From the NCBI GenBank assembly GCA_002869015.1, contig PKTT01000002.1:32299-96298 (forward strand): DNA of 64,000 nt, given 5' to 3'. The position numbers were made by a program, and so were the translations under genes. The notes beneath the pieces are model-generated. The model was not told the origin of the DNA, ran no database searches, and saw only the letters and a program-made list of their open reading frames with translations. Positions within the stretch are counted from its first letter, which is position 1; every line of letters begins with the position of its first letter. Source of the DNA: Deltaproteobacteria bacterium. Lineage in GTDB: Bacteria; Desulfobacterota; Deferrisomatia; Deferrisomatales; BM512. This document shows, piece after piece, positions 1,281 through 20,419 of the stretch.

Positions 1281-4200
1281 TGAAAGGCAACCTGTCAAAC
1301 GGCATCATCGCCTGGTTCGCCAAAAACCACGTAGCCGCCAACCTACTCATGTTGATGTTTTTGGTAATGGGGGCGATAAGCCTCATGAACATCAAACAGG
1401 AGGTATTTCCTGAGGTTGACCTCGACATGGTCACCATCACAGTGCCATACCCGGGGGCAACTCCAGACGAGGTGGAGGAAGCAATATGTACCAGAATTGA
1501 GGAGAGCATCGTCTCCGTTGACGGCATAAAGACCATCACCTCACGTGCCTCTGAGGGTGTGGGCACTGTCATCGTGGAGCTTGAGACCGGGACGGATGTT
1601 CAAAGGGCTGCTGACGATATCCAGGCGGAGGTCGACCTCATCGACACCTTCCCGGAAAACGCTGAAGACCCTCGCGTTTCCCAGCCAAACAACAGACGGC
1701 AGGTAATAAACCTCGTCATATACGGGGATGTGCCTGAGCGAACTTTGAAAGTGCTCGCTGAAAAAGCGCGGGACGAGCTTACGGAGACCCCAGGCATAAC
1801 GCAGGCTGACGTATCTGGCGTTAGGAATTATGAGATCGCCATAGAGGTCAGCGAGGAGACCTTAAGGCGTTTTGGAATAACCTTCGATCAGATAGTCGCG
1901 GCGGTTAAAAGATCATCGCTTGACCTCCCCGGCGGCTCTGTCAAAACCGATGGCGGTGAGATACTGATTAGGACGAAGGGGCAGCGTTATGAGGGCGCCG
2001 AATTCGAGGATATAAACCTTATCACCAGGCTTGACGGCACGACGGTAAAGCTGGGCGATGTTGCGTCCGTAATAGATGGCTTTGACGAGGATACAACCCT
2101 CATAACCCGCTACGACGGGAAACCCGCCACGCTGGTCCAAGTTTTCAGAGTCGGAGAGCAAGACGCCATTGACGTCGCTGATAAAGTAAAAAGCTACATA
2201 ACCTCAGCCGGAGCGTATCTTCCGGCGGGGGTGCAGATGGGGCTTTGGAATGATTCGACCGACATATTAAAGTCCAGGCGGGACCTCCTCCTTAGGAATG
2301 GCGCAAGCGGTCTGATACTGGTATTCGGCTCGCTGTTACTCTTCCTGAGCCTCCGCCTTGCATTCTGGGTGACGATGGGTATCCCGATCTCATTTTTGGG
2401 GGGTCTTTGGCTGATGCCCTACTTCGACACCTCCCTAAATATGGTCTCACTCTTTGCCTTCATTGTAGCCCTTGGCATAGTCGTCGACGACGCGATAGTT
2501 GTTGGAGAAAACATCTATGCCCATTGGGAGGAGGGTAAATCACCCTACAGAGCCGCTGTCGATGGCGCCATAGAGATGGCGGTGCCGGTGGTCTTTGCAG
2601 TGTTGACAACCGTGGTGGCTTTCATGCCACTCCTATATGTAGAGGGAACTATGGGTAAGTTCATGAAAAACATACCCATAGTTGTCATAGCGGTATTTGT
2701 GATCTCTCTAATCGAGTCACTCCTGATTCTGCCCGCCCATCTGGCAGCCGGCAGGATGAAGCACCATAAGCACAATGGTGAAAAGCGCGTCAACCTCCTA
2801 GAGCGCTTCCGCCGCCTCTTCGGCCGCTCCCTTGACTGGTTCATACGAGTCCCCTATGGGAGCACCCTCAGATTGGCGGTTAATTGGAGGTATTTTACCG
2901 TGGCGGTGTTCTTCGGCTTTATGGTCGTAACCCTATCCATCGTCGGGTCAGGTAAAGTGCGCTTCACCTTCTTCCCAAAGGTTGAGTCGGATGTCGTCAC
3001 CGCCACCCTCCAAATGCCCCTTGGCACATCCATCGAAGAGACGGGACGATACTCCAAAATACTGGAAGAGAGCGCCCAAAAGCTGCGTGGGGAGATGGTG
3101 GAGAATGGCAAATCCGTCATATCTCACATCTTCAGCCTCTCCGGCGGGCAGACCGCCAGCAGAGGTCCTTTCGGCGGTTCCTCAAGCGGGGACCACCTCG
3201 CCCAAACTATAATTCAATTGACGCCATCGGAAGAGCGCAACATCACGAGCGAGAACATTTCAAAGAGGTGGCGCGAGCTCGTAGGCGATATACCGGATGC
3301 CGAAAGTCTTACCTTTGCGGGCAGCCTCTTCTCCTCAGGCAACCCAATAGATATCCAGCTTAGAGGCAATGATATGGACACCCTCCTCGAGGGTGCCGAG
3401 AAGCTGAAGGTGGAACTGGCGAAATACCCCGGCGTCTTCGACATAGAGGACTCTTTTAGAGAGGGCAAGATGGAGCTCAAGATGAAGCTAAAAGAGTCCG
3501 CCGCCAACCTTGGCCTCACCCTCGCCGACCTTGCCCACCAGGTCAGGCAGGGATATTACGGTGAGGACGCGCTGACGATACAACGAGGCAAAGATGATAT
3601 CGACGTAGTAGTGCGCTACCCCAAGGAGGAGAGGCGATCGCTTGGCGATGTTGAAAAGATGCGTATCCGCACAGCCTCCGGCGCGGAGGTGCCCTTCTCA
3701 ACCGTGGCCGAGGTGACCCTTGGGCGCGGCTACGCAAATATAAACAGGCAGGAACGGAAGAGGGTTATAAGCGTTACCGCTGATATCGACGAAAAGAACG
3801 CCAACGCAGCTGAGGTGGTGGGCGACCTAAAAGCGGGCTTTCTGCCTCGCCTGGCAGATGATTACCCAGGTCTCTCATACGCCTTTGAGGGGCATGACAA
3901 GAGGCGCGCTGAATCAATGAATAGCTTAAAGAGAGGCTTCATAATAGCACTCTTCGGCATATATCTGCTACTCGCCATACCCTTCAAAACATACACACAG
4001 CCCTTAATAGTTATGACCGCTATCCCCTTTGGCATAGTCGGTGCTGTCTGGGGGCACATTTTCATGGGGATGGATTTAACAATCCTCTCGATGTTTGGAA
4101 TAGTCGCCCTCTCGGGTGTGGTTGTAAATGACTCCCTTATCCTCATAGATTACATAAACAGGGCAAGGGAGAAGGGGACAGCTCTACACACGGCGGTTAT

Positions 4201-4450
4201 GGAGTCGGGAATAAAGCGCTTCAGGCCGATACTATTGACTACCCTTACCACATTCTTCGGGCTATTACCCATGCTGCTTGAGAAATCAGTGCAGGCTAAG
4301 TTCCTAATCCCGATGGCCGTGAGCCTTGGCTTTGGCATAGTGACGGCAACAACCATAACGCTGATTCTTATTCCCTGCCTATACACGATCCTAGAGGACT
4401 TCATGAACCTCTACGGCATCAAAGGCCGCAGGTGGGAAGAGGTTGAGTAG
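1280..4450 (+). CDS. Efflux RND transporter permease subunit (AcrB/AcrD/AcrF family)
   Basis: 1056 aa with a 12-TM pattern and two large periplasmic loops. Typical N-terminus (IAWFAKNHVAANLLMLMFLVMGAISL) and conserved TM4 region (ALGIVVDDAIVVGENI). Translationally coupled to the adaptor. Confidence 0.92.
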   Translation: MKGNLSNGIIAWFAKNHVAANLLMLMFLVMGAISLMNIKQEVFPEVDLDMVTITVPYPGATPDEVEEAICTRIEESIVSVDGIKTITSRASEGVGTVIVELETGTDVQRAADDIQAEVDLIDTFPENAEDPRVSQPNNRRQVINLVIYGDVPERTLKVLAEKARDELTETPGITQADVSGVRNYEIAIEVSEETLRRFGITFDQIVAAVKRSSLDLPGGSVKTDGGEILIRTKGQRYEGAEFEDINLITRLDGTTVKLGDVASVIDGFDEDTTLITRYDGKPATLVQVFRVGEQDAIDVADKVKSYITSAGAYLPAGVQMGLWNDSTDILKSRRDLLLRNGASGLILVFGSLLLFLSLRLAFWVTMGIPISFLGGLWLMPYFDTSLNMVSLFAFIVALGIVVDDAIVVGENIYAHWEEGKSPYRAAVDGAIEMAVPVVFAVLTTVVAFMPLLYVEGTMGKFMKNIPIVVIAVFVISLIESLLILPAHLAAGRMKHHKHNGEKRVNLLERFRRLFGRSLDWFIRVPYGSTLRLAVNWRYFTVAVFFGFMVVTLSIVGSGKVRFTFFPKVESDVVTATLQMPLGTSIEETGRYSKILEESAQKLRGEMVENGKSVISHIFSLSGGQTASRGPFGGSSSGDHLAQTIIQLTPSEERNITSENISKRWRELVGDIPDAESLTFAGSLFSSGNPIDIQLRGNDMDTLLEGAEKLKVELAKYPGVFDIEDSFREGKMELKMKLKESAANLGLTLADLAHQVRQGYYGEDALTIQRGKDDIDVVVRYPKEERRSLGDVEKMRIRTASGAEVPFSTVAEVTLGRGYANINRQERKRVISVTADIDEKNANAAEVVGDLKAGFLPRLADDYPGLSYAFEGHDKRRAESMNSLKRGFIIALFGIYLLLAIPFKTYTQPLIVMTAIPFGIVGAVWGHIFMGMDLTILSMFGIVALSGVVVNDSLILIDYINRAREKGTALHTAVMESGIKRFRPILLTTLTTFFGLLPMLLEKSVQAKFLIPMAVSLGFGIVTATTITLILIPCLYTILEDFMNLYGIKGRRWEEVE

Positions 4451-4479
4451 TGTTTAGTAAGCCGGGTCAAATTTAAGAG

Positions 4480-4508
4480 GAGGCCGCCCTGATGGGCGGC
4501 CTCTTTTT
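4480..4508 (+). terminator. Rho-independent terminator after the RND operon
   Basis: Perfect stem gAGGCCGCCC / GGGCGGCCTc with a 4-nt loop (tgat), followed by TTTTT at 4504-4508. Lies 30 nt after the stop at 4450. Confidence 0.8.
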
Positions 4509-4539
4509 ATTTACAAGTTGATAAAATTTAGTGAAACCG

Positions 4540-4555
4540 CGGCAGGGTATTTGCA
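4540..4555 (+). promoter_or_regulatory. Candidate sigma-54 (-24/-12) promoter of the 4624-13509 operon
   Basis: cGGCAgGgtatTTGCa matches TGGCACG-N4-TTGCW at 10 of 12 defined positions, with exact GG-N10-GC spacing (GG 4541-42, GC 4553-54). Lies downstream of the terminator and about 70-80 nt upstream of the TTG 4624 / ATG 4633 start. Confidence 0.5.
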
Positions 4556-4557
4556 AT

Positions 4558-4571
4558 AATCATATATGATT
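4558..4571. promoter_or_regulatory. Perfect 14-bp palindrome next to the -12 element (possible operator)
   Basis: AATCATATATGATT is its own reverse complement. It begins 3 nt after the TTGCA -12 element and would cover the predicted transcription start. Confidence 0.35.
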
Positions 4572-4623
4572 CAAGTCACACGCCTTTTCCTTTTTAACTT
4601 AAATCAGAGCGGCGGATACTAGA

Positions 4624-7032
4624 TTGACCCCAATGAACCACGGAAGAGAGATTAAGGCACTCGCGATTTTAAGCTGCGGCGTGCTCCTCTATGAGCTTTT
4701 ACTGATGCGGATATTCTCCGTGCTCATGTGGTACCACTTTGCAAGTCTTGCAATTGGCCTCGCCATGCTCGGGCTAGGCGCGGGTGGCCTTGCAGTTGGG
4801 CTTAAAAGCTCTCTTGGAGAGGAAAAAAAACGCGGGTTGATGGCAGCAATCTTTGCTGCTGGTTCACTACTTGTGCTCATATTTCTTATGGGGGTACACG
4901 CTTATCCGGCACTTGCAAAGGCGACCCTCGCTCCATTTCACCAACCCTTTTACAAACCCTTTGCCAGGCCGGAGACAACCGAACTGGGATGGCCCCTCGC
5001 CTCTCGCCTGCTCCTTCTCGCCATTGGAACTGGGTGGCCATTCTTCTTTGCAGGCGTCGCCACGGCAGGTGCCTTACGTGAAAAGGCCCCGGCGATACAC
5101 GGAGCGTACGGCGCGACATTCCTCGGCTCGGCTTTTGGCTGTATAGCCTTCCCGCTGGTCTTGAATTTCATCTCCGCACCGGCGGCGATAGGCCTTTGCG
5201 CCGCCCTCTCTTCATTGGCGGCGTTCCTCTTTAGCCGCCGCTTAATTTGGCGAAAAATATCAGCAGCCCTTCTCCTCCTCTCTATGATTTTTGGCTGTAT
5301 AGCTCAATTTACGGGACTTGCAGAGATACCCTTCGCCAGAGGGCGCTATGAGCCGGGCATCCTTGCCGTTGAGTGGAATGCAATGAGCCGCGTCGCGGCT
5401 TTTCCGCTCCCACCGGGCGACACACTAAAACCATACGGCCTCTCCAACACCTACAGGGGGGAGTTGCCCAGGCAGATTGGGCTCGTTGTGGATGACTCCG
5501 GCTATACCAACCTTTACGATGGGCTGGCAGCAGCGGAGAATCCGGAATACTTCCGCGCCAACCTTGTCGCCCTCCCCTATCACCTAAGAGAGAACGCAAA
5601 AGCCCTCCTCTTCGGACCCGGCGGCGGCAAAGATATCTGGATAGCACTCTCCTTCCCCAACACCAGGGTGCGCGCTGTGGAGATAAATCCGCAGGTCGTT
5701 GAGATGGTGGAGGATCGATTCGCCCCCTTCACGGGTAAGCCATACAGCGACTCCAGGGTTTCTTTGACAATAAACGACGGACGGCGCTTTGCACTTTTGA
5801 CCGATGAAAAGTATGACGTCATAAGCGCCTCGGCAGTTTTCGGCAGGATGCCTCCGGCGGCGGGGGCCTTCACGCTCTCGGAGGACCTCCTCCACACTCT
5901 TGAAGGCTTTGAGGATTATTGGGAAAAACTCTCGGAGCGTGGCATTATCTCAATTACACGCTTCGCCTATGAGCAACGAGCGCTTAGGTTGACCGCTCTT
6001 TCTCGTGAGCTTTTGGACTCAGTGGGCGTCAAAGACCCCGGCGCGCACATCCGAGTTATAAGCGACCGTGGCCTCTCAAACGTCATGATATCCAAGCGTC
6101 CCTTTTCAGAGGAAGATGACGAGAAGCTGTCCACGTTGGTGGATGATTACAACTTTTCGTTCCTCTACCCGCCTCCCGACGAGGCTGGCGTCAACTCCCT
6201 CACCCGACTGGTGGATGAAGCCGAGATGGATGGGGTGCTCTCTTCTCTTGCCTTTGATGTTTCGCCCCCGACTGACGATAGGCCCTTCTTCTACTACACT
6301 GTAAGGCCGGGCGATTTCCTAAGAGGGCACCTCCCTGGAAAAGCGGGGTTCGATGACAGGGGCGCGGAAATTCTCCGCACGGCATTTCTGCTCCTTGCGC
6401 TGCTCTCAGTTGCAGCGTTGATCCTACCGGCGGCCCTGATAAAGGGGGTACCGCGAGGAGCCGCCAGTTTAGGGCCGCTTGCATACTTTGGGATAATAGC
6501 GCTTGGATATATGGCGCTTGAGATTGGAACGATGAAGCGCCTTCTCCTGCTGCTTGGGCACCCGGTATACGCTGTAAGCGCAACCTTGTTTGCCTTTCTT
6601 CTCGGCTCCGGCCTTGGCGCGCTCCTCTCGGCCAGGCTCGCCCCAACAAGGAGAGCATTGGCGGGATGGTTGGCTATAGCGGTGCTTTTAGGCGCGGCGC
6701 AGGCTTACCTTACCCCCGCTATTACCGAGAGGGCGATGCTCTACAGCGCGCAAATGCGTTTCTTTGTCGCGGCGCTAGTGACCCTACCGCTTGCTTTCAC
6801 ACTGGGTATCCCTTTCCCAACCGGGGTGGCTTTATTAAGAGAGGATGCAGGGAACCTCCTGCCCTGGGCGTGGGCGGTCAACGGCACAGCCTCGGTATTG
6901 GCTTCGCTGGGAGCTGTCCTTCTGGCAATGAACTTTGGGTACGCAGTGACTATAAGCACCGGCGCGCTTCTCTACCTGCTGGCCCTTCTCCTGTCATTCA
7001 CTCTGGAAAAGAGCCGTAGGATAGTTCCATGA
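4624..7032 (+). CDS. Polytopic membrane protein with a central spermidine synthase-like (class I SAM-dependent transferase fold) domain
   Basis: 802 aa. About 7 hydrophobic helices at the N-terminus and about 6 at the C-terminus flank a soluble region with LLFGPGGGKDIWIALSF...VRAVEINPQVVE...INDGRRFALLTDEKYDVISAS, the spermidine-synthase/aminopropyltransferase-type nucleotide-binding pattern. TTG at 4624 or ATG at 4633. ATGA overlap with the next gene. Confidence 0.7.
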   Translation: MTPMNHGREIKALAILSCGVLLYELLLMRIFSVLMWYHFASLAIGLAMLGLGAGGLAVGLKSSLGEEKKRGLMAAIFAAGSLLVLIFLMGVHAYPALAKATLAPFHQPFYKPFARPETTELGWPLASRLLLLAIGTGWPFFFAGVATAGALREKAPAIHGAYGATFLGSAFGCIAFPLVLNFISAPAAIGLCAALSSLAAFLFSRRLIWRKISAALLLLSMIFGCIAQFTGLAEIPFARGRYEPGILAVEWNAMSRVAAFPLPPGDTLKPYGLSNTYRGELPRQIGLVVDDSGYTNLYDGLAAAENPEYFRANLVALPYHLRENAKALLFGPGGGKDIWIALSFPNTRVRAVEINPQVVEMVEDRFAPFTGKPYSDSRVSLTINDGRRFALLTDEKYDVISASAVFGRMPPAAGAFTLSEDLLHTLEGFEDYWEKLSERGIISITRFAYEQRALRLTALSRELLDSVGVKDPGAHIRVISDRGLSNVMISKRPFSEEDDEKLSTLVDDYNFSFLYPPPDEAGVNSLTRLVDEAEMDGVLSSLAFDVSPPTDDRPFFYYTVRPGDFLRGHLPGKAGFDDRGAEILRTAFLLLALLSVAALILPAALIKGVPRGAASLGPLAYFGIIALGYMALEIGTMKRLLLLLGHPVYAVSATLFAFLLGSGLGALLSARLAPTRRALAGWLAIAVLLGAAQAYLTPAITERAMLYSAQMRFFVAALVTLPLAFTLGIPFPTGVALLREDAGNLLPWAWAVNGTASVLASLGAVLLAMNFGYAVTISTGALLYLLALLLSFTLEKSRRIVP

Positions 7033-8114
7033 AAAACTTTTCAGCTACAAATAAACTTTTTATTGCGTTGGTCTTGCTGCTCACATCGGCTGCGTTACCA
7101 AGCTGCACCCGGCAGGACAATCCAGACAAACCATCCACCGTAGAGGGCCGAGTACTTTGGCGGGGGGCAGGCGTACCGATGGCGCTTGTCCAGCTCTACG
7201 AAAAAGCTGAACAGGATCGCTCAACCCCGCCCGTCGCAGAAGGCCCAAGCGGAGAAGATGGTTCTTTTTCCATTACCGCACCTGCCGGGCTTTATTACGT
7301 CTGGGCCAAGGCTACTATGTTGTCGGAGGGGCGCGAGTACAGGCTGGTGGGTGAGGCTGTTCCAAACCCTGTGGCCCCCGCCGCAGGAGGCAGCGCCACT
7401 GTGGAGATTGAGCTAACCGACCCAAGCGGTTTCTCCGCGTCCACGGCCCCAGAGGGTAGCGGGGTTATGGGCAATGTGACGGCAACGGGCAAAGGTAAAG
7501 AGCGACTGACCCTCTACATTTACAGAGGCGCGCACGAAAGGCCTATTGGTCCCGACTTTATAACCGCAACAGACCCTGAAGAGGGAGCCTTTAAGGTTAA
7601 CCTTTTGCCGGGTGAATACACTTTGGCGATTCGCTCAAGAAAATCAGGTAATGATTTCGGTCCGCCCGCCCCCGAAGATAGAGTTTTCTCACGTATCTTC
7701 ACAGTGAAAAGCGGCGAGTATATGGACCTTGGCCCCATAAGTTTAAATGAGATCGATAGTGACCTCTGGCGCTCCGTCACCGCATCTCTTGGAGATGGAA
7801 GCACAAAAGTCAAAGGCGTAATAGTAAACGACCGTGAGCAACCTGAAGCGGGAGTGCGGGTTCTGGCATTTGAAGATGGACGAATGGCGGGCAAGCCCGT
7901 CGCGGTAAGCCCGGCCACCGGTATCGACGGGAGCTTCACTCTGCTCCTGCCGCGCGGAGGCTCATTCTTTCTCGGCGCACGTTCTAGAATAGGCGGCCCG
8001 GCAGCGCCCGGAGAGAGGGTCGGGCAGGAGCGCGGAGAGGATGGCGGCGGCCTCAAAGTCAAGGAGGGCGAGACGGTCAAAGGTGTAAAGATTGTGGTTG
8101 AGGAGGTCTGGTGA
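7029..8114 (+). CDS. Lipoprotein with three carboxypeptidase-regulatory-like (CarboxypepD_reg / transthyretin-like beta-sandwich) domains; paralogue 1
   Basis: Signal peptide plus a Cys (LLLTSAALPSC). Three units of about 100 aa begin EGRVLWRGAGVP..., VMGNVTATGKG... and VKGVIVNDREQP.... The G-x-V-...-G-x-P-V-...-DG-x-F-...-PG-x-Y pattern is typical of CarboxypepD_reg. Coupled to both flanking genes. Confidence 0.65.
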   Translation: MKNFSATNKLFIALVLLLTSAALPSCTRQDNPDKPSTVEGRVLWRGAGVPMALVQLYEKAEQDRSTPPVAEGPSGEDGSFSITAPAGLYYVWAKATMLSEGREYRLVGEAVPNPVAPAAGGSATVEIELTDPSGFSASTAPEGSGVMGNVTATGKGKERLTLYIYRGAHERPIGPDFITATDPEEGAFKVNLLPGEYTLAIRSRKSGNDFGPPAPEDRVFSRIFTVKSGEYMDLGPISLNEIDSDLWRSVTASLGDGSTKVKGVIVNDREQPEAGVRVLAFEDGRMAGKPVAVSPATGIDGSFTLLLPRGGSFFLGARSRIGGPAAPGERVGQERGEDGGGLKVKEGETVKGVKIVVEEVW

Positions 8115-9130
8115 TGTACCCGCGAATTATAATATCCCTTGCGCTCGCCCTTTCCCTCTCCACTTTAGCCTTAGCTGGTGGAGGTATTAAAGGGCGCGCT
8201 TCCCTCGGCGGAGTGCTTGTGGAAGATATATCCGTACGCGCCTACGAATACACGCCGCTAACCTTTGGCCCACTCACTGGGGGTGCGCCTGTTGCAGAGA
8301 CGGTTACGGAAACGGACGGCAGCTATTCCCTTGAGCTGAAACCGGGGCGTTATGTCGTAGAGGCAATTAAAAAGGGTAATGGAAACAACAGTGTCAAAGT
8401 AGAGGGCGGAGACCTCTACTGTCTTTATTCTGGCTCCCCGGTTACCGTCGCTGCGGAGCGCTGGACCGCCGTTGGACTCTACTTGGTAGAAGCCAAAACC
8501 GAGGAGGAGACCCCCTCACCGAGCGCAAAGCTCTCAGGTGAGCTGACATTCAAAGGCGACCCCGTGGAGAGGGCTTACCTATACGCATACAATTCAGCTG
8601 AGGGGGGGTTTCGCGGCCCCGCCTACATGCTTCAGCCCGTGGGCAAGGGCTCCTTCTCTTTGAGATTACCCCCCGGAGAATATTTTCTCGTAGCTAGAAA
8701 GCGTGCACGGGGAGGAGCTTATGGGCCTATGGATACGGGGGATCTATTCAACTTTTATCCTCTAAATCCGGTTGAGATAAAGGCAGGTGCGGAGCTTAAG
8801 GTTAAGATTCTTCTGGTGGAACGTCTAAGCCAGCTAGAAGTGGAGGAAAACTCCTACAGAGGTCTTAAGGTAAAGGTGCTTAGCAGCGGAGGCAAACCCC
8901 TTAGCGACCACTATGTTCTGGCGTACACATCCTCGGCGCGCTCCGGCCCCCCGGCGGCGACGGGAGGCCCTACCGATGAGCGTGGAGAGGCGTTCATAAA
9001 CGTCCCACCCAACGCCATTTATTTGAGGGCGAGAGGAACATTAGGCGGCCCTCTGGCTGAGGAGGAGCCGTTTGCGGATGCCATACGAGGCGAAAGTGAA
9101 GATATGGTGACCTTCAAGGTGTATAAGTGA
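8111..9130 (+). CDS. Secreted protein with three carboxypeptidase-regulatory-like domains; paralogue 2
   Basis: Signal peptide MMYPRIIISLALALSLSTLALAGG. Same three-domain layout and the same Y-F-L-V-A-R-K-R...GP...GDLF motif as its neighbours. GTG at 8111 or, more likely, ATG at 8114 (AGGAGG at 8101-8106). Confidence 0.65.
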   Translation: MMYPRIIISLALALSLSTLALAGGGIKGRASLGGVLVEDISVRAYEYTPLTFGPLTGGAPVAETVTETDGSYSLELKPGRYVVEAIKKGNGNNSVKVEGGDLYCLYSGSPVTVAAERWTAVGLYLVEAKTEEETPSPSAKLSGELTFKGDPVERAYLYAYNSAEGGFRGPAYMLQPVGKGSFSLRLPPGEYFLVARKRARGGAYGPMDTGDLFNFYPLNPVEIKAGAELKVKILLVERLSQLEVEENSYRGLKVKVLSSGGKPLSDHYVLAYTSSARSGPPAATGGPTDERGEAFINVPPNAIYLRARGTLGGPLAEEEPFADAIRGESEDMVTFKVYK

Positions 9131-10164
9131 AACGTTTACTTTTCATAGCCATCTCGATAGCGCTGCTCTTAGGTTGCGCCGCCCGGCAGGGGGCCATCAA
9201 AGGGCGGGTACTCTTCGGTGAAAAGCCGGTTCAAGGTGCCATCGTCACTGCCCAGGCGGAGGGCGCGGAAACCTTTACAGCAACTACTGATGCTAATGGC
9301 GAATATTCCTTCACCGCCCTGCCTCCAGGCGATTTTTCAGTGTCCGCGAAGATAGCTGAAAGAGAGCAAATGGTTACCGTTTGGGGCGAGACACATCTAT
9401 TTCTCCCCCCAGGCGCCGAGGAGTGGGTTGGCCTTAAACTTGCCCCCCGCGAGGGAGTCATATACAGCCCATACGAACCCTCCACGCCCAGCTTTGGCGC
9501 GATATCTGGTGTGGCGCTATTTGATAAGAAGCCGGTAACCGGGGCGGTTGCAAGCATCTATCTGGATGAGGGAGAGGAGCTAAAGGGACGCGGCTTTCGC
9601 CATTCCTTCCCTACCGGTGAAGATGGACGCTTTTACATTGATGATATTCCTGACGGGGTCTACTTCCTGGCGGTTAGAAAACGCGTGGGAAGAGATATCG
9701 GCCCCATAGCCGAGGGCGACCTTTTTGGCGTCGCTTCAGCCAACCCAATCACGGTAAAGCCGGATACAGAGACCTCCACCACCCTCCATTTGGCAAAAAA
9801 AGAGAAGACCCGCGCGCCACACGCGCTTGATCTAAGCCGCACCGGCACCGCCATCCGGGGCCGAGTCTTAGATGCTGATGGCGCGCCGCTGGCGGGGCTC
9901 TATGTCTTCGCTTACAGGTCGAGGATAATCGGACACCAGATGCCCGACTTCATAACCGAGCCAACGGGAGATGACGGAGAATTTATCCTGCCCCTGGGAG
10001 AGGGTGGAATCTTCTATCTCGGAGCGCGTCAGAAGCTTGGATACTCGCCGACCCCAGGCGAGCTCTTCGGCCTCTATGACGGCACCGCCGACCATGGCAT
10101 TAAAGTAGGCAGGGGAGAGGTTATTAAAGGCATAGAGATAAGAGCGGTTGAGGTGCTCCCCTGA
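9127..10164 (+). CDS. Lipoprotein with three carboxypeptidase-regulatory-like domains; paralogue 3
   Basis: Lipobox LLLGC. Units begin IKGRVLFGEKPVQGA, ISGVALFDKKPVTGA and IRGRVLDADGAPLAG. Motifs YFLAVRKRVGRDIGPIAEGDLFG and FYLGARQKLGYSPTPGELFG. GTGA overlap upstream and TGATG overlap downstream. Confidence 0.65.
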   Translation: MKRLLFIAISIALLLGCAARQGAIKGRVLFGEKPVQGAIVTAQAEGAETFTATTDANGEYSFTALPPGDFSVSAKIAEREQMVTVWGETHLFLPPGAEEWVGLKLAPREGVIYSPYEPSTPSFGAISGVALFDKKPVTGAVASIYLDEGEELKGRGFRHSFPTGEDGRFYIDDIPDGVYFLAVRKRVGRDIGPIAEGDLFGVASANPITVKPDTETSTTLHLAKKEKTRAPHALDLSRTGTAIRGRVLDADGAPLAGLYVFAYRSRIIGHQMPDFITEPTGDDGEFILPLGEGGIFYLGARQKLGYSPTPGELFGLYDGTADHGIKVGRGEVIKGIEIRAVEVLP

Positions 10165-11066
10165 TGTTCCGCTTACTATCTGGCCTCCTCTTCCTATCGC
10201 TTGCGGCATGTTCGGCGCCTGAGACAACGGGCGACCTTCACTATATGCCCTCTGAGCTAATCTCAAGCGAGGTTACATGGGAGGGGCGCGTCGTTGTGGA
10301 TAGAATTGTAATCGTTGGGAGGAGCGGGACCCTCAGGATCGCTCCGGGCACAAAAATCCTCTTTGAGAAGGTCGACTGGGACGGAGATGGAATAGGTGAT
10401 GCCGAGATCACCGTTGAAGGTAAACTAATCGCAGATGGCACCCCGCAGGAGCCGATACTAATGGCCTCCGCCGAGGTTGACCCCTCGCCTGGTGATTGGA
10501 AATACCTCCACATCAACTTTGCCAGGGGGGCGCGCCTCTCAAATGTCCGCATAAGCGATGCGTTCAGCGGTATTCAGGTACATTACTCAAAGGTTGAGAT
10601 CGACCGCTGCGACTTTCGCCACAACATAGACGGCATAAGATTTTCAACTGCGGATTTGACGGTTAAGGGTAGCCTGAGCATGCAGAACAGGCATGGCATA
10701 AGGTTCGAGGAGAGGGGGCACCCTGCTCTTATATCGGGAAACCGGGTAACCGATAACGAGGTCGGCATCTTTGCCGTTACAGAGTGTAAGGGCACCTCAA
10801 CTTTTAAAGATAATGACTTTTCAGCCAATGAGACCCCTGTGAAGATGGGCTGGGAGCAGCACAGCGACATCGACCTGACCGGCAACTGGTGGGGCGCGCC
10901 CGCTGACAAGGTCAAAGAGAGTATACTTGATGGTAAAAGGGATAGCACCCTGGGCGTGGCGGTAATAGCGCCGGTTATGGGGCTTGCGCCCGATATATCG
11001 GAGCCATTCTATCTTCCCTACAAAGACCCTGACTGGGAGCGGGCAACAAAAAGAGATCTAAGATGA
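10164..11066 (+). CDS. Lipoprotein with right-handed parallel beta-helix repeats (NosD-like periplasmic protein)
   Basis: Lipobox LSLAAC. Repeated short beta-helix rungs (ISDAFSGIQVHYS / RHNIDGIRFST / MQNRHGIRFEE / TDNEVGIFAVT). C-terminal TGNWWG motif seen in NosD-type beta-helix proteins. ATGA overlap with the next gene. Confidence 0.6.
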   Translation: MFRLLSGLLFLSLAACSAPETTGDLHYMPSELISSEVTWEGRVVVDRIVIVGRSGTLRIAPGTKILFEKVDWDGDGIGDAEITVEGKLIADGTPQEPILMASAEVDPSPGDWKYLHINFARGARLSNVRISDAFSGIQVHYSKVEIDRCDFRHNIDGIRFSTADLTVKGSLSMQNRHGIRFEERGHPALISGNRVTDNEVGIFAVTECKGTSTFKDNDFSANETPVKMGWEQHSDIDLTGNWWGAPADKVKESILDGKRDSTLGVAVIAPVMGLAPDISEPFYLPYKDPDWERATKRDLR

Positions 11067-11971
11067 AGCGACGCGATTTTTTGAAGAAACTTGCCAGGAC
11101 GGGCTTTGTGGTATCAACCGCAGGCGCGTTGCCCCTTTTCGACCTCTCAAAAGCCTCGGCCGCGCCTAAGCCATATCCACTGGCGGTGGCAGCCGATGGC
11201 AGCCCCGCGGAGCTTGCCCGTGAGGCGGTTGGGAAGTTGGGGGGGATTACAAACTTCGTCAAGAGCGGGGATGTGGTTGTGGTAAAGCCCAATATAGGTT
11301 GGGACCGTACTCCCGAGGAGGGCGCTAACACCCACCCCGATGTGGTTCGCGAGCTTGTGTTGATGGCACTGGAGGCTGGCGCAAAGGAGGTTCGCGTCTT
11401 TGACCGCACCTGCAACGATCCGAGGCGCTGCTATAAGCGGAGCGGAATAGAGGACGCCGTTAACTCCATTGAGGATTCGAGGGCAAAGATTACGCACGTA
11501 GATGAGCTACGCTATGAAGTCGTAGAGATTAAGGATGGCGTCTCACTTACCAAGTGGCCCCTCTACCGCCCCGCGCTTGAGGCTGATGTGCTTATAAACG
11601 CCCCCGTCGTCAAACACCACGGCATGAGCGAGGTAACCATCGGCATGAAAAACCTCATGGGAATAATGGGGGGTAACCGTGGGCGACTGCACCGGGATTT
11701 GACCAACGGGCTGGTTGACCTCAGCCTTGCTGTAAAGTCTCATCTGACTGTGGTTGACGCTACGCGGGTTCTCCTCGCGGGCGGCCCCCAGGGAGGTGGA
11801 ACAAATAACGTAAAAGCCATCGGCAAGGTGGCAGCATCCCGAGACGTTGTAACCGCTGATGCTTGGGGGGCTACAATTTTTGGTGTCGATCCATTTTCCA
11901 TACCCCACATAAAGCGAGCACATGAGCGAGGTCTGGGTATCGCAGACCTCTCAAAGGTAGAGTTGCTTTGA
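11063..11971 (+). CDS. Tat-exported DUF362 domain protein
   Basis: N-terminal twin-arginine signal MKRRDFLKKLARTGFVVSTAGALPLFDLSKASA|AP. The core GDVVVVKPNIGWDRTPEEGANTHPDVVRELV...VKHHGMSEVTIGMKNLMG matches my recollection of the DUF362 family. Confidence 0.6.
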   Translation: MKRRDFLKKLARTGFVVSTAGALPLFDLSKASAAPKPYPLAVAADGSPAELAREAVGKLGGITNFVKSGDVVVVKPNIGWDRTPEEGANTHPDVVRELVLMALEAGAKEVRVFDRTCNDPRRCYKRSGIEDAVNSIEDSRAKITHVDELRYEVVEIKDGVSLTKWPLYRPALEADVLINAPVVKHHGMSEVTIGMKNLMGIMGGNRGRLHRDLTNGLVDLSLAVKSHLTVVDATRVLLAGGPQGGGTNNVKAIGKVAASRDVVTADAWGATIFGVDPFSIPHIKRAHERGLGIADLSKVELL

Positions 11972-13509
11972 GGATGCATATAAGTAGCAGAAGAGCGGTC
12001 CAGTTTCTTACGTTGGCGGGGTTTTTAGCCCTCTACGCGAGGACCGCCTATTATGGGCAGGATGAGATCACTTGGCCCGTCCACCTTGCTTTCAAGCTGG
12101 ACCCGCTTGCGCTTTTAAATACCCTGATTGCAGGGGGCTCACCCTCAGCAGCTCTTCTCTTGGGGGGGCTTTCGATGGTCGTCGCTACGGTCATCCTGGG
12201 GCGTTTTTTTTGCGGATGGCTCTGCCCAATGGGTACCACATTAGATATATTCGGAACCCTCCTGAGGAGGGGGGCAAAAAAGCGGCGGGGCTACCAAAAT
12301 GTAAAGCCGCCAAAATATAGTCAGACGGCTCTATTCATCACCCTCCTCTTTGCCACGGCGGCGGGATTGCCCCTTTTGGCATTTCTCGACCCGCTCTCAA
12401 TTTTACTGCGGTCATTGACTGTTTCGGTCTTCCCAGCCTTCGACTATTTGAGCAAAACAATTCTTTCGGCGGGGATGGATGCTTCGGTACCTCTTTCTGA
12501 GCCTATTTTCGAGTTGATGAGCGAGCATATCCTCTTGCTTAAAACCCCAGTCTTTCTTCTGGCCGAGGTGACCGCCGCCATTTTCATAGCAATCATTCTG
12601 CTTGAACTTATCTCACCCAGATTCTGGTGCACATATCTCTGTCCGCTAGGCGGCCTTTTGGGAGTAATTTCCAAGTTCTCACCCTTAACCAGGGCGCGAC
12701 TGGAGGAGTGTAAAGGGTGCAAGGGGTGCGCCGCCCGCTGCCCAAATGGGGCAGCTGATACAAACCCCGCCGACAAGGCGCTCTGCATCCAGTGCATGGA
12801 GTGCGGCGAGCTTTGCAATAAGAATATCTTCGGCATGAGGGCAAGATTCTCGGCACCCTCCCCTTCATTACCAGACCGGAGGATGAGGCGCGGGGTCGTC
12901 GCTTCCATAATAATCGGCGGAGGAGCAGCCCTTTTCACTGGAACCAGCGCAATTGCTAAGAGGCGCGGCACACGCTTTTTGAGGCCTCCGGGAGCTGTAG
13001 ATGAGGAGCGCTTCAATAAGCTCTGCATAAGGTGCGGCGCGTGTATGCGCGTTTGCCCTAGAAACGGTATACACCCGTCTCTCGGCGAAGCCGGGCTGGA
13101 CGGGCTCTGGTCGCCGAGGCTCGTTCCGCGGCTCGGCTATTGTGAATACCATTGCCGGCTCTGCGGACAGGTCTGCCCTACTGGTGCAATCAGGTATCTG
13201 GCTGAGGGGAAGAAGGAATCGTGGGTTATCGGCATCGCGGTGTTGGATAAAAACAGATGCCTCCCGTTGCGTGATGGAACCCCCTGCATTGTATGCGAGG
13301 AGCACTGCCCGACCTCGCCCAAAGCTATAGAGTTTGAGGTAAGGGAGGTCACCCGAAAAGAAGGCGACGTGGTGATGGTAAAACAGCCGAGGATAGTCGC
13401 TGAAAGGTGTAACGGCTGCGGGATATGCGAAAATAAGTGCCCCCTTGAGGGCGAGTCCGCGATCAGGGTCGAGCGTGTACAGCAGGAGATTTCCTCCCCC
13501 TACGGCTAG
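11968..13509 (+). CDS. Membrane polyferredoxin, apparent NapH/NosH-like plus NapG/NosG-like fusion
   Basis: The N-terminal half has 4-5 TM helices and two CX3CP motifs (CGWLCPMG, CTYLCPLG) plus CKGCKGCAARCP and CIQCMECGELC, the NapH/MauN/NosH pattern. It is followed by RRMRRGVVASIIIGGGAALF (Tat-like motif plus helix). The C-terminal half has LRPPGAVDEERFNKLCIRCGACMRVCP and three more Cys clusters, the NapG/MauM pattern. TTG at 11968 or ATG at 11974. Confidence 0.7.
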   Translation: MRMHISSRRAVQFLTLAGFLALYARTAYYGQDEITWPVHLAFKLDPLALLNTLIAGGSPSAALLLGGLSMVVATVILGRFFCGWLCPMGTTLDIFGTLLRRGAKKRRGYQNVKPPKYSQTALFITLLFATAAGLPLLAFLDPLSILLRSLTVSVFPAFDYLSKTILSAGMDASVPLSEPIFELMSEHILLLKTPVFLLAEVTAAIFIAIILLELISPRFWCTYLCPLGGLLGVISKFSPLTRARLEECKGCKGCAARCPNGAADTNPADKALCIQCMECGELCNKNIFGMRARFSAPSPSLPDRRMRRGVVASIIIGGGAALFTGTSAIAKRRGTRFLRPPGAVDEERFNKLCIRCGACMRVCPRNGIHPSLGEAGLDGLWSPRLVPRLGYCEYHCRLCGQVCPTGAIRYLAEGKKESWVIGIAVLDKNRCLPLRDGTPCIVCEEHCPTSPKAIEFEVREVTRKEGDVVMVKQPRIVAERCNGCGICENKCPLEGESAIRVERVQQEISSPYG

Positions 13510-13511
13510 CG

Positions 13512-15014
13512 CTAAGCCCCTGCCTCAATTATCTCCTTAATTGCTGCCATATCGAGAACCTGGCGCAGGTATGCCGCGAGCTTTTGATAACCCTCCTCCT
13601 TTTTTGCTTTGAAGGAGACAGCGCTGACTGCCTCTCCCCGGTGAAGTGCCAGGAGCGAGGAACGAAAGTCATCGTTGTCGAAGATCCCATGTAAGTATGT
13701 CCCGAGGACTCTGCCATCGGCGGATACGGCGCCATCCTTGTGCCACTCGCCGCTTCCCTTTCTGCGAAGCTCCAAAAGGGGCGCTACCCCTTCGCCAAGG
13801 GTTGTGCGGCCCATGTGAATCTCGTACCCATCGAGTATTCCCCTGTCGCCATACCACCCGAGGGCGCCCTCACGTACTACCGCCTCTGATTGTGAGGTCA
13901 CCTTCTCTCTCTCCATCACGGTGACGGCGTCTATGAGGCCTAGGCCTTCAGCTTCGGGAACGGTACCCTCGACACCGTCGGGGTCCAGAAGTTTGCTACC
14001 CAGCATCTGATAACCGCCGCAAATCCCAACAATAGTCGCCCCAGCGCGGTAGTTTTCGAGAACCTCTGCAGCAAGGCCGGCATCCCGTAGGGTCAGCATA
14101 TCGTCTATGGTGTTTTTTGAACCGGGGATAATTACTATATCGGCTTTGCCAAGGCTCTCCCCCGGCCTGACAAAGTCCAGCCTCACACCCGGCTCCGATA
14201 AAAAGGGGTCAAAATCAGTAAAGTTGGACATCCTCTTTGCAACAACTACCGCGACGCGCACGCTGGAAGCGCCGCCTACGCTCCTCATAGCATCGAGGTG
14301 CAGACCATCCTCCTCCTGGATAAAGATGTCATTTAGCCACCCCACCGTTCCGAGGAAGGGCTTGCCGGTGCGGGACGTTATCTCCCGGTAGGCTGGCTCC
14401 AGAAGAGTCGCGTCGCCACGGAACTTGTTTATGATAAAGCCTTTGATTAGCTCGGCCTCTTCACGCGCTATCAACTCCATGGTGCCTACCAGTGAAGCAA
14501 ATACCCCACCCTTGTTTATATCCCCAACGAGAATAACCGGCACCTCGGCTTCGAGAGCGAATCCCATGTTAGCGACATCGCCCTCCCTTAAATTTATCTC
14601 TGCAGGGCTACCTGCTCCCTCCACCAAGATTACATCAAAGCGCTCATTCAACTTCTTCCAGCTATCGAATACCGTTTCGCGCGCGATCTTCTTGAAGGCG
14701 TGATATTCGGCCGCCTTCATATTTGAATGCACTTTGCCTTGCAATATTACCTGGGCGCCTATGTCGGTTGTGGGTTTTAGGAGCACCGGGTTCATATCCA
14801 CATGAGGTGGTATTCCTGCCGCCTCCGCTTGGACAACCTGCGCCCTACCCATCTCACAGCCCTCGGCAGTTATGAAGGAGTTAAGGGCCATGTTTTGCGG
14901 CTTGAAGGGGGCGACCCTGACACCATCCTGGCTCAATATCCTGCAAAGCCCGGCTACTATGATAGATTTACCCACATCAGAGCCGGTACCCTGTATCATT
15001 ACGCTTTTAGCCAT
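13512..15014 (-). CDS. cobQ: Cobyric acid synthase
   Basis: 500 aa. N-terminal P-loop MIQGTGSDVGKSIIVAGLCR. C-terminal glutamine amidotransferase domain (GICGGYQMLG...YLHGIF). Confidence 0.9.
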   Translation of the reverse strand: MAKSVMIQGTGSDVGKSIIVAGLCRILSQDGVRVAPFKPQNMALNSFITAEGCEMGRAQVVQAEAAGIPPHVDMNPVLLKPTTDIGAQVILQGKVHSNMKAAEYHAFKKIARETVFDSWKKLNERFDVILVEGAGSPAEINLREGDVANMGFALEAEVPVILVGDINKGGVFASLVGTMELIAREEAELIKGFIINKFRGDATLLEPAYREITSRTGKPFLGTVGWLNDIFIQEEDGLHLDAMRSVGGASSVRVAVVVAKRMSNFTDFDPFLSEPGVRLDFVRPGESLGKADIVIIPGSKNTIDDMLTLRDAGLAAEVLENYRAGATIVGICGGYQMLGSKLLDPDGVEGTVPEAEGLGLIDAVTVMEREKVTSQSEAVVREGALGWYGDRGILDGYEIHMGRTTLGEGVAPLLELRRKGSGEWHKDGAVSADGRVLGTYLHGIFDNDDFRSSLLALHRGEAVSAVSFKAKKEEGYQKLAAYLRQVLDMAAIKEIIEAGA

Positions 15015-15054
15015 CTATTAATAACCCTAGGAAATGTTTCAGCATCTAAATGCC

Positions 15055-16422
15055 TCAGGAAACCCCCAGCTTTTCAAGGCGGTACCTGAAGGAGCGGAAG
15101 GAGAGGCCAAGCAACTTTGCCGCCTCTGTTTTATTACCCCCTGTCTTTTTTAGCGCCTGCCTGATAAATGATAACTCTTTTCCGGTTAGGTATGCCTCTA
15201 TGTCCAACCCTTCATCTGGCAGTGACTCATCCTTTAGCCCGACCCCGTCTCGCTTCTCTGAGAGATACTCGGGAAAGCTATTCGGAGAGAGGTACTCCCC
15301 TGTTTCTAGGGCAACGGCCCTCTCGACGAGATTTTCCAGCTCCCTAACGTTTCCGGGGAAGTAGTATCCCTCAAGGAGTGTAAATACCTCAGGCTCTATC
15401 CCAGCCAGGTTTCTTCCAAAAGCCTTCTTGTACTTCTCGAAAAAGTGTTGTGTGAGTAGGGGAATGTCGTTTTTTCGTTCACGTAGCGAAGGGAGCTTAA
15501 TGGTTACAACGTTGAGGCGGTAGTATAGGTCCTCCCGGAAGCTGCCAGCCATTACCTCTTCCGCCAAGTCTCTATTTGTAGCGGAGACAATCCTTACATC
15601 GACATCGATCTCTTTATTTCCGCCTACACGTTTGATCTTCCCTGATTGGAGCACCCTAAGTAGCTTTGGCTGCAAAAGCAGGGGCAACTCTCCAATTTCG
15701 TCAAGAAACAATGTACCTCCGGCAGCCTCCTCAAATAGCCCCGGCTTGTCGGAAGTCGCACCGGTAAAGCTACCTTTTATGTGGCCGAAAAGCTCACTTT
15801 CAAGGAGGCCCTCTGGGATTGCTGAGCAGTTGAGGACGACAAAATTACCCTCTCTACCCGAGAGATCATGTATCCGCTTTGCTACAAGCTCCTTGCCGGT
15901 GCCGCTGTCGCCAAGGATGAGAACAGTTACACCTGTCGGCGCGATCCTCTCCGCTAGCTGCAACATCTCAATGGCGCTTTGGGAACGAGCTATAAAATCG
16001 CCCTTTCCTACGACCTCGGCAATCTTCCTCCTGAGCTCACGGTTCTCACGGGTAAGGGCTCCGCGCTCCAGCGCCTTTCTTATCGTTATCCTTATCTGAT
16101 CTACCTGAAAGGGTTTTGTTATGTAATCGTAAGCGCCAAGTTTCATCGCTTCGACGGCTGTCTCCGGTGTAGCAAAAGCGGTAATTACGATGACCTGGGT
16201 ATCGGGCTGTTTGGCCTTTACCCTTTCGACAATCTCCATCCCATTGCCGTCAGGCAGATTTAGATCGGTTATAAGGACGTCGTATATCTCCGAATCAATT
16301 TTCTCAAAGGCTGAGGCTACATTGCCGCAAGTGGTTGCCTCGTATCCCTCACCCTCCAGAAGAATTTCGAGAAATTCGCACATCGACGTTTCGTCATCTA
16401 CGACAAGTATTCGTTCAATCAT
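15055..16422 (-). CDS. pilR: Sigma-54-dependent response regulator (NtrC family), PilR by synteny
   Basis: REC domain (ILVVDDE...ITDLNLPDGNG). AAA+ domain with GDSGTGKE, ESELFGH and GSFTGA (GAFTGA variant). C-terminal Fis-type HTH (GGNKTEAAKLLGLSFRSFRYRL). ATG at 16422 overlaps the pilS stop (ATGATTGA); the 16476 extension is unlikely. Confidence 0.8.
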   Translation of the reverse strand: MIERILVVDDETSMCEFLEILLEGEGYEATTCGNVASAFEKIDSEIYDVLITDLNLPDGNGMEIVERVKAKQPDTQVIVITAFATPETAVEAMKLGAYDYITKPFQVDQIRITIRKALERGALTRENRELRRKIAEVVGKGDFIARSQSAIEMLQLAERIAPTGVTVLILGDSGTGKELVAKRIHDLSGREGNFVVLNCSAIPEGLLESELFGHIKGSFTGATSDKPGLFEEAAGGTLFLDEIGELPLLLQPKLLRVLQSGKIKRVGGNKEIDVDVRIVSATNRDLAEEVMAGSFREDLYYRLNVVTIKLPSLRERKNDIPLLTQHFFEKYKKAFGRNLAGIEPEVFTLLEGYYFPGNVRELENLVERAVALETGEYLSPNSFPEYLSEKRDGVGLKDESLPDEGLDIEAYLTGKELSFIRQALKKTGGNKTEAAKLLGLSFRSFRYRLEKLGVS

Positions 16423-18019: not shown

Positions 18020-18022
18020 GAA

Positions 18023-19234: not shown

Positions 19235-19272
19235 CTGATTCTCCTGCGTCTGCCTTGTGGCTCAAGTTCATA

Positions 19273-20394: not shown

Positions 20395-20419
20395 ACTCCT
20401 TTATGCGCTTGGCCGCTTA

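Follow-up and report, generated by a model that had tools for sequence, protein, structure and literature searches.

The present analysis concerns a seven-gene operon on the plus strand of a 64-kb stretch of DNA (hereafter the window), which is part of contig PKTT01000002.1 (positions 32,299 to 96,298) of a Deltaproteobacteria bacterium of the Deferrisomatales. The genes, named g1-g7 in their order, are listed in Table 1 together with the features around them. They constitute one conserved, translationally coupled envelope unit of two separable modules, g6 and g7 making up module 1 and g1-g5 module 2. The listing of open reading frames (ORFs) gives exactly seven genes between 4624 and 13509, as claimed in the first-pass annotation of this DNA, and the six start/stop overlaps that join them were all found again on re-reading: ATGA at 7029, GTGATG at 8111, GTGA at 9127, TGATG at 10162, ATGA at 11063, and TTGA at 11968. 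The envelope location proposed for every product also holds, each of them being polytopic or carrying a Sec, lipoprotein, or twin-arginine translocation (Tat) signal. The lipoboxes, the Sec signal, the Tat motif, and the transmembrane (TM) helices of g1 and g7 were recognized by reading the protein sequences directly. In the deposited record, a metagenome-assembled genome (MAG) at NCBI in which the genes have the locus tags C0608_00225 to C0608_00255, the products are named "hypothetical protein" or "cytoplasmic protein".

Table 1. Genes and other features of the operon region, in coordinates of the window.
Feature	Position	Strand	Description
Intrinsic terminator hairpin	4474-4509	+	16-bp stem, dG -30.5 kcal/mol, z -7.17
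Promoter/operator block	4524-4581	+	58 nt, 100% identical in relative L007, flanks diverged
g1	4624-7032	+	802 aa, polytopic: 7 TM, spermidine-synthase-fold domain (~231-584), 7 TM
g2	7029-8114	+	Lipoprotein (lipobox LPSC), three transthyretin-like (TTR; CarboxypepD_reg-type) repeats
g3	8111-9130	+	Secreted (Sec signal), three TTR repeats
g4	9127-10164	+	Lipoprotein (LLGC), three TTR repeats
g5	10164-11066	+	Right-handed beta-helix lipoprotein (LAAC), 300 aa
g6	11063-11971	+	DUF362 protein, Tat motif KRRDFLK
g7	11968-13509	+	Fused NapH-like and NapG-like polyferredoxin
Convergent CobQ-like gene	13512-15014	-	GATase_3 (3e-59), CbiA
Type IV pilus gene set	15055-22114	-	Order pilB-pilT-pilC-pilS-pilR

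Profile hidden Markov model (HMM) searches with Pfam and NCBIfam agree with the domains that had been assigned to all seven proteins, and they bear out the absence of NosZ, NapA, and cytochrome genes from the operon. All seven proteins score below the curated NCBIfam cut-offs. The composition is indeed one without a characterized counterpart, as had been supposed: a function for any of the seven proteins is given neither by curated families nor by solved structures or searchable papers, and full-text literature searches found neither a description of the system nor a functional study. The sole recognizable element is an electron-input module of the NapGH type, which is here fused and has a new partner.

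The N-terminal half of g7 matches the NapH models NF007013 (107.9 bits against a cut-off of 234) and TIGR02163 (104 against 213), and the C-terminal half matches the NapG model NF007012 (95.8 against 269). As in the menaquinol dehydrogenase modules NapGH and NosGH, the N-terminal half combines TM helices and two CX3CP motifs in the TM region (CGWLCP, residues 82-87, and CTYLCP, residues 221-226) with two CxxCxxCxxxC(P) motifs for cytoplasmic 4Fe-4S clusters (C248-C258 and C273-C283), while the C-terminal half has a twin-arginine motif followed by four further 4Fe-4S motifs (353-491) that are predicted to be periplasmic. These hallmarks are conserved in the orthologues, the CX3CP and the cytoplasmic motifs in 24 out of 24, and all 28 Cys residues in 22-24 of the 24. 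The protein differs from NapGH and NosGH in being one fused polypeptide with scores below the cut-offs, and in having the twin-arginine signal-anchor (RRMRRG and a TM helix, residues ~303-325, window 12874-12942) at an internal rather than an N-terminal position. The anchor, which retains (S/T)RR in 20/24 orthologues, is the Tat signal of NapG kept internally, and its presence in a polytopic protein would imply a combined Sec and Tat insertion. Such insertion has been reported for some multi-spanning Rieske proteins. It is likely that g7 has in common with NapGH and NosGH the role of carrying electrons out of the membrane to a partner in the periplasm. That partner, however, is not NapAB, NapC, or NosZ: the constant one is DUF362, and the cluster holds no molybdo-, copper-, or haem enzyme.

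The g6 protein matches DUF362 (PF04015) with 165.1 bits against a gathering threshold of 24 and with full-length coverage of the model. Its AlphaFold2 (AF2) model has a mean confidence (pLDDT) of 89.4, and the top Foldseek matches of the model are LarA and malate racemases (8ezh, 5huq, 7s91), with a probability of 1.0, E-values of 1e-7 to 1e-5, and TMq of 0.45-0.49. The LarA superfamily, which comprises the nickel-pincer-nucleotide racemases and epimerases, is thus the nearest in fold, and DUF362 and DUF2088 (LarA) have been placed in one Pfam clan, CL0471 (PMC11770544). At the sequence level the two are far apart: g6 is ~120 residues shorter, its profile has no match to any LarA structure, and sequence searches of the PDB with g4, g5, and g6 returned nothing useful. 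The invariant polar residues of g6 include R82, D114, R115, C117, K184, H185, H186, K196, and H210. In LarA, Lys184 tethers the cofactor, His200 is a Ni ligand, and Arg75 and the catalytic His108 and His174 are the other residues described (PMC11770544). With R82, H186, K196, and H210 all invariant, g6 has an H-to-K spacing of 10 as in LarA, and these residues could be counterparts of the LarA ones.

What sets g6 apart from LarA is furthermore that it is Tat-exported, the RR-x-F motif being near-invariant even in distant lineages, and that it is paired with a polyferredoxin. Together these features suggest net electron transfer and not the redox-neutral hydride shuttle of LarA. Other DUF362 proteins have 4Fe-4S domains nested inside them (PMC7955657), which links the function of the family to Fe-S clusters; by analogy, the clusters of the g6-g7 pair would be supplied in trans. 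Taken together, the LarA fold, the conserved Tat signal, the constant polyferredoxin partner, and the Fe-S-linked relatives make g6 the probable catalytic or terminal subunit and the partner of g7. The statement of the first-pass annotation that the operon has no recognizable catalytic core therefore stands in so far as the g6 family is uncharacterized, but a Tat-exported DUF362 protein with a LarA fold, paired with a polyferredoxin, is an obvious candidate for one.

The g7 protein has 2,350 homologues at E<1e-20, and over all loci collected the DUF362 gene lies immediately 5' of the polyferredoxin gene in 40 of 41. Three loci on unrelated contigs of Thermodesulfobacteriota type have a stand-alone DUF362 protein (300-304 aa) encoded directly before the polyferredoxin, and g1, TTR, and beta-helix genes are absent from all three. 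Module 1 is a self-contained pair that recurs in anaerobic Thermodesulfobacteriota and Desulfuromonadota, and it can be regarded as the conserved functional unit.

The connection between this pair and the other five genes was examined through a scan with a g1 profile over one genome per species, which gave 76 loci whose ORFs were searched with the proteins of the window. Synteny was counted in the 41 g1-anchored loci that extend at least 9 kb downstream of g1. At least two triple-TTR genes are present in 40 of these, a beta-helix gene in 39, DUF362 in 30, and the polyferredoxin in 30, so that the co-occurrence check proposed at the outset comes out strongly positive and accidental adjacency is ruled out. 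The carriers include Desulfuromonadales (Geopsychrobacter, Geothermobacter, Malonomonas, Trichloromonas, and Desulfuromonas MAGs) and Deferrisomatales, together with one Gemmatimonadota MAG and several unclassified bins.

Most Desulfuromonadales have a version of the cluster with 15-18 genes. It starts, in this order, with genes for an AAA ATPase, an FmdE-like protein, an ArsP_1 permease, an FG-GAP/ASPIC protein, in some cases a TTR protein, a beta-helix and pyrroloquinoline quinone (PQQ)-propeller protein, and g1, and continues with alternating TTR and beta-helix genes, DUF3467, a beta-helix gene, a short OpuAC-like gene, DUF362, and the polyferredoxin. The permease, seen for example at L001 5291-6247 and in its orthologues, has a vicinal-cysteine motif, PLCACG, which we liken to the CSC motif described for the soft-metal exporters SO_0444 and SaoE (bioRxiv 10.1101/2022.07.06.499078). 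The modules reside at separate loci in two genera, Deferrisoma (L003 versus L083 and L084) and Geothermobacter (L035 versus L086). The first of the two contains FG-GAP, g1, the TTR genes, and the beta-helix gene, and the second AAA, FmdE, ArsP, TTR, beta-helix/propeller, in some cases DUF3467, OpuAC, DUF362, and the polyferredoxin. A minimal form, g1 with two TTR genes only, is found in some genomes. Compared with these arrangements, the operon of the window is a reduced, composite form, in which the g1-TTR-beta-helix core is followed by the two genes that end the second locus; homologues of AAA, FmdE, ArsP, FG-GAP, OpuAC, and DUF3467 are found nowhere within the 64 kb. A metagenomic contig (L087, 9556-13127) carries DUF3467 and DUF362, after which the polyferredoxin and DUF3047 are present only in fragments. 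The arrangement resembles a decayed remnant of the second module and occupies a thiS/thiG-linked position, as the intact cluster does in Geopsychrobacter and Geothermobacter.

The g1 protein is the anchor of module 2. Its AF2 model (pLDDT 84.8, predicted template modeling score 0.88) consists of two bundles of seven TM helices with a soluble domain between them, and the best 50 matches listed by Foldseek against the PDB are all SpeE (probability 1.0, TMt ~0.57). The domain includes the N-terminal beta-hairpin domain of the SpeE fold, and Pfam gives a weak Spermine_synth match of 23.9 bits. In a profile alignment with the Thermotoga SpeE (1INL), the Asp of the GGGDGG motif, which selects decarboxylated S-adenosylmethionine (dcSAM), is replaced by the invariant G334 of the g1 motif GPGGGKD; the catalytic D170 and D173 of the DSTDP loop correspond to G407 and P410, and the YHE motif to F-R-x-N. 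On the other hand, g1 keeps the glycine-rich loop, E353 at the acidic ribose-binding position, and the nucleotide-binding position D385-G386, and the domain may therefore bind an adenosyl-type or other ligand. Aminopropyl transfer of the known kind is not possible, because the catalytic and dcSAM-selecting Asp residues are replaced.

Over 20 homologues, the short loops on the N-terminal (inside) side carry 17.2 Lys and Arg residues and those on the other side 3.2, and the helices flanking the soluble domain both have their positive ends pointing away from it. On the basis of these charges the central domain is predicted to face the periplasm. In addition, E24 and R29 in TM1 and E633 and R639 in TM9 are invariant. 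A possible duplication of the TM1/TM9 motif was considered and dropped, since hhalign of the N-terminal against the C-terminal TM bundle gave a probability of 1.2%, and neither bundle matches any Pfam family at E<=10. The family is large, with hundreds of full-length homologues and 5,494 clusters (50% identity) at E<=1e-30. The cluster records of the distant relatives have no informative names or taxa, and among the family names in databases only some read "predicted membrane-bound spermidine synthase".

These labels, the fold, the weak Pfam match, and the retained binding positions could be taken to mean that g1 is a genuine membrane-bound polyamine aminopropyltransferase and that the operon makes or exports surface polyamines. 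We regard this as very improbable in view of the substituted Asp residues and of the SpeE equivalog scores of 21.7-29.2 bits, to be compared with cut-offs of 249-472 in NCBIfam. The predicted periplasmic location would moreover place the domain where the nucleotide co-substrate is absent, and the cluster contains no speD or other polyamine gene. With respect to the known SpeE proteins, including the membrane-anchored forms (PRK03612), g1 is thus similar in fold, glycine-rich loop, and acidic ribose-binding position but differs in the replaced residues, in the insertion of the domain between two 7-TM bundles, in its predicted side of the membrane, and in the triple-TTR genes that follow it.

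Pfam finds CarboxypepD_reg domains in g3 (37.2 bits) and g4 (71.5 bits), and an iterative HMM built from domain 1 of g4 shows that g2, g3, and g4 contain three repeats of ~95 residues each (domain E-values 1e-8 to 1e-24; in g2 at 36-130, 144-213, and 259-351). The three proteins are paralogous and triple-domained, as had been read from the sequence before. Loops of the form R..GGP...G(D/E) are kept in repeats 2 and 3. The next protein, g5, scores 40.1 bits with Beta_helix and 38.3 bits with NosD in Pfam, and a calcium-type loop, DxDxDGxxDxxE (D71-E81), is kept among 40 orthologues. The TTR and beta-helix families have zero conserved Cys, His, or Met. We infer that g2-g5 would be a periplasmic binding or scaffold set and not carriers of metal centers.

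Like the NosD of NosDFY, g5 is a periplasmic right-handed beta-helix that matches the NosD Pfam model. It resembles the NosD/CASH proteins yet is not a NosD: it reaches 26.5 bits with the NosD model TIGR04247, for which the cut-off is 300, it is a lipoprotein of 300 aa without NosF and NosY partners, and it has the conserved calcium-type loop but no conserved Cu or S ligands. The NosD-, NapH-, and NapG-type matches could in principle come from accessory genes that were left behind by, or serve from a distance, a nos (N2O reductase) or nap (nitrate reductase) system located elsewhere. We find this hardly credible, as all three types of match fall far below their cut-offs (26.5 versus 300, 107.9 versus 234, and 95.8 versus 269 bits), the constant neighbor of the polyferredoxin is DUF362, and nosZ, nosF, nosY, nosL, napA, napB, and napC adjoin the cluster in none of the ~80 loci. 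At 24123-25592 on the minus strand, next to ispH (LYTB), ribF, and aroE-like genes, the window encodes another NosD/Beta_helix protein (489 aa); it is unlinked to the operon and weakly g5-like (E 7e-11).

Domains of the Beta_helix/NosD (CASH) and CarboxypepD_reg types typically belong to proteins that bind or process carbohydrates, and their presence in g3-g5 raises the alternative that the operon modifies or remodels an envelope polymer such as a polysaccharide, a surface layer, or peptidoglycan-linked material. The glycan would then be bound by the beta-helix and TTR proteins and, in the relatives, by the FG-GAP and beta-propeller proteins, while g1 would be a membrane transferase or transporter. 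The conserved Arg and Asp/Glu loops of the TTR proteins would fit an anionic ligand, the FG-GAP/ASPIC and PQQ-propeller proteins do occur in relatives, and the invariant charges in TM1 and TM9 of g1 would suit such a function. Nevertheless, a glycosyltransferase, flippase, polymerase, or outer-membrane export gene is found neither in the operon nor in the conserved cluster, and the six-cluster polyferredoxin and DUF362 would be left without a role, for which reasons this alternative seems to us quite unlikely.

We have also considered that the system handles thiophilic metals, metalloids, or metal sulfides in the periplasm, through export or capture, holding on the beta-helix and TTR proteins, and reduction by the DUF362-polyferredoxin pair. 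Analogues would be NosDFY/NosL with NosGH, or CcoG, which is a cupric reductase. The host lineages are typically sulfur- and metal-reducing. Several family matches point this way, namely those of the beta-helix proteins to NosD, the weak ones of the TTR proteins to DUF4198/NikL-type models, and the weak one of g7 to CcoG; all of them are far under the curated cut-offs. The long clusters of the relatives add an FmdE-like HGHxCP protein, the AAA ATPase, and the PLCACG permease, which is related to the Cu/Zn efflux protein SO_0444 and to SaoE (bioRxiv 10.1101/2022.07.06.499078), but the ArsP, FmdE, and AAA genes are missing from the window. The lack of conserved Cys, His, and Met in the TTR and beta-helix families, where the calcium-like DxDxDG loop is the sole site of a metal type, also speaks against it. 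Overall, we judge metal handling to be unlikely, although it deserves to be kept in mind.

Upstream of g1, an element of the sigma-54 type with -24/-12 spacing, CGGCAGGGTATTTGCA, is located at 4540-4555, ~70 nt ahead of the start codon. It reads CGGCAG-N5-TTGCA, with two mismatches to TGGCAC-N5-TTGC, and has the GG-N10-GC pattern. The element is identical in L007, within the conserved promoter/operator block of Table 1. Ahead of the first gene of the orthologous clusters, canonical TGGCAT-N5-TTGCT sites (at least 9 of 11 consensus matches) are found in 27 of 56 loci, where ~1.6 would be expected from a background rate of 0.029 per 360 nt; among the clusters that start with the AAA gene, 22 of 26 carry this sequence upstream. 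Since the block is identical in L007 and canonical sites recur in orthologous loci, enhancer-dependent transcription is probably a conserved property of the cluster. The sigma-54 promoter that the first-pass annotation placed at the head of the operon is thus supported by comparison, but not by the motif of the window alone. A perfect 14-bp palindrome, AATCATATATGATT, at 4558-4571 is centered on the predicted start site near 4565 and could be an operator for a dimeric regulator; as ~4 such palindromes are expected by chance per 64 kb, it is notable only through its conservation in L007.

The stand-alone pairs differ in this respect, as no sigma-54-like site was found ahead of any of the three. 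One of them (L089) has a HAMP histidine kinase and a sigma-54 response regulator encoded directly upstream (2284-5377), and in the intervening 700 nt no -24/-12 site agreeing with the consensus at 8 or more of 11 positions was found. As publicly annotated (PLX43118.1, 799 aa), g1 begins with the ATG at 4633. In L007, which is 89% identical, this ATG is ATA and the TTG at 4624 is kept, so that TTG 4624 is the likelier start codon.

The borders of the operon are as described before. The strong terminator ahead of it was recovered by RNA folding, in which 0 of 200 shuffled sequences fold equally well, and its stem is kept in L007. It closes an upstream RND-type efflux operon (an HlyD-type gene and an AcrB gene) and may work in both directions, with A/U runs flanking each side. 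Downstream, the convergent cobQ was confirmed through its GATase_3 and CbiA matches. The stop codons of g7 and the cobQ-like gene are two bases apart (13509/13512) with no terminator in between, and the sole terminator-like site for the latter, at 13452-13439 on the minus strand, is within the 3' end of g7; convergent transcription of the two may cause interference. The pilus genes come next (T2SSE with MshEN, the latter inferred from L085, a second T2SSE, T2SSF, a 6TM_PilS kinase, and a Sigma54_activat response regulator), and they also follow the operon in the close relative L085. A search of 4000-15200 against Rfam found zero RNA families. The GC fraction is 0.54-0.575 in the operon, 0.485-0.549 in the flanking intervals up to 24 kb, and 0.538 in the whole window, with no clear sign of a recent transfer of the operon.

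A quinol-fed electron-transfer pair joined to a periplasmic protein platform is the best explanation that we can offer for the operon, and we give it an even chance of being correct. Transcription would start near 4565 from the sigma-54 promoter, a trait common to the orthologous clusters. The g7 protein would draw electrons from menaquinol, or via its cytoplasmic clusters from a donor in the cytoplasm, and conduct them over a chain of six Fe-S clusters to the periplasm, where g6 would be the terminal, substrate-converting subunit. The g1-g5 proteins would provide a periplasmic platform, anchored in the membrane, on which the substrate is bound, presented, or processed.

A number of observations weigh against this picture. 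The g6 protein belongs to a DUF362 subfamily with a single invariant Cys and no recognized cofactor motif, and it could be a chaperone or assembly factor instead of an enzyme. The orientation of g1 is a prediction from the positive-inside rule and the AF2 helix count. Furthermore, 10 of the 41 g1 loci have no DUF362 and NapHG nearby, and module 2 can therefore work without module 1 in cis. As to the promoter, sites like that at 4540-4555 occur at chance level in the window (56 versus 58.8 expected), and 4552-4560 (TGcAATAAT) can also be read as a sigma-70 promoter of the extended -10 type. A search of the surroundings for a dedicated enhancer-binding protein yielded none; the activator next to the operon (15055-16476) is PilR, which we do not assign to the cluster because it sits in the pil cluster and is not kept beside the other clusters. 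No activator is kept beside the orthologous clusters among the loci compared.

The operon physically links three large families that have no characterized member or functional annotation, namely DUF362, the fused NapH-NapG polyferredoxin, and the 7TM-SpeE-7TM family. Two hypotheses follow from it: that DUF362 can be the terminal partner of a quinol-fed periplasmic Fe-S wire, and that a spermidine-synthase fold has taken on a new role outside the cytoplasm. A more far-reaching reading, which we put forward tentatively and hold to be possible rather than probable, is that DUF362 and the fused NapH-NapG constitute an unrecognized class of quinol-dependent periplasmic oxidoreductases coupled to a new envelope machine. 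The catalytic subunit of this class would be a Tat-exported protein of LarA fold, possibly with a pincer-type or other unusual cofactor, and in the Desulfuromonadota and Deferrisomatales the pair would be coupled to a new periplasmic machine based on a 14-TM protein in which a repurposed spermidine-synthase fold faces outward. If this were true, g6 would be the first LarA-fold protein acting in the periplasm, and the operon would give bacteria that reduce sulfur and iron a new system for respiration or for the processing of minerals, metals, or sulfur. The organisms that carry it live in marine and subsurface settings and respire sulfur, iron, or electrodes, among them the cultured Geopsychrobacter, Geothermobacter, Geoalkalibacter, and Deferrisoma, and a new periplasmic redox activity in them could have consequences for extracellular respiration or for the cycling of metals and sulfur.

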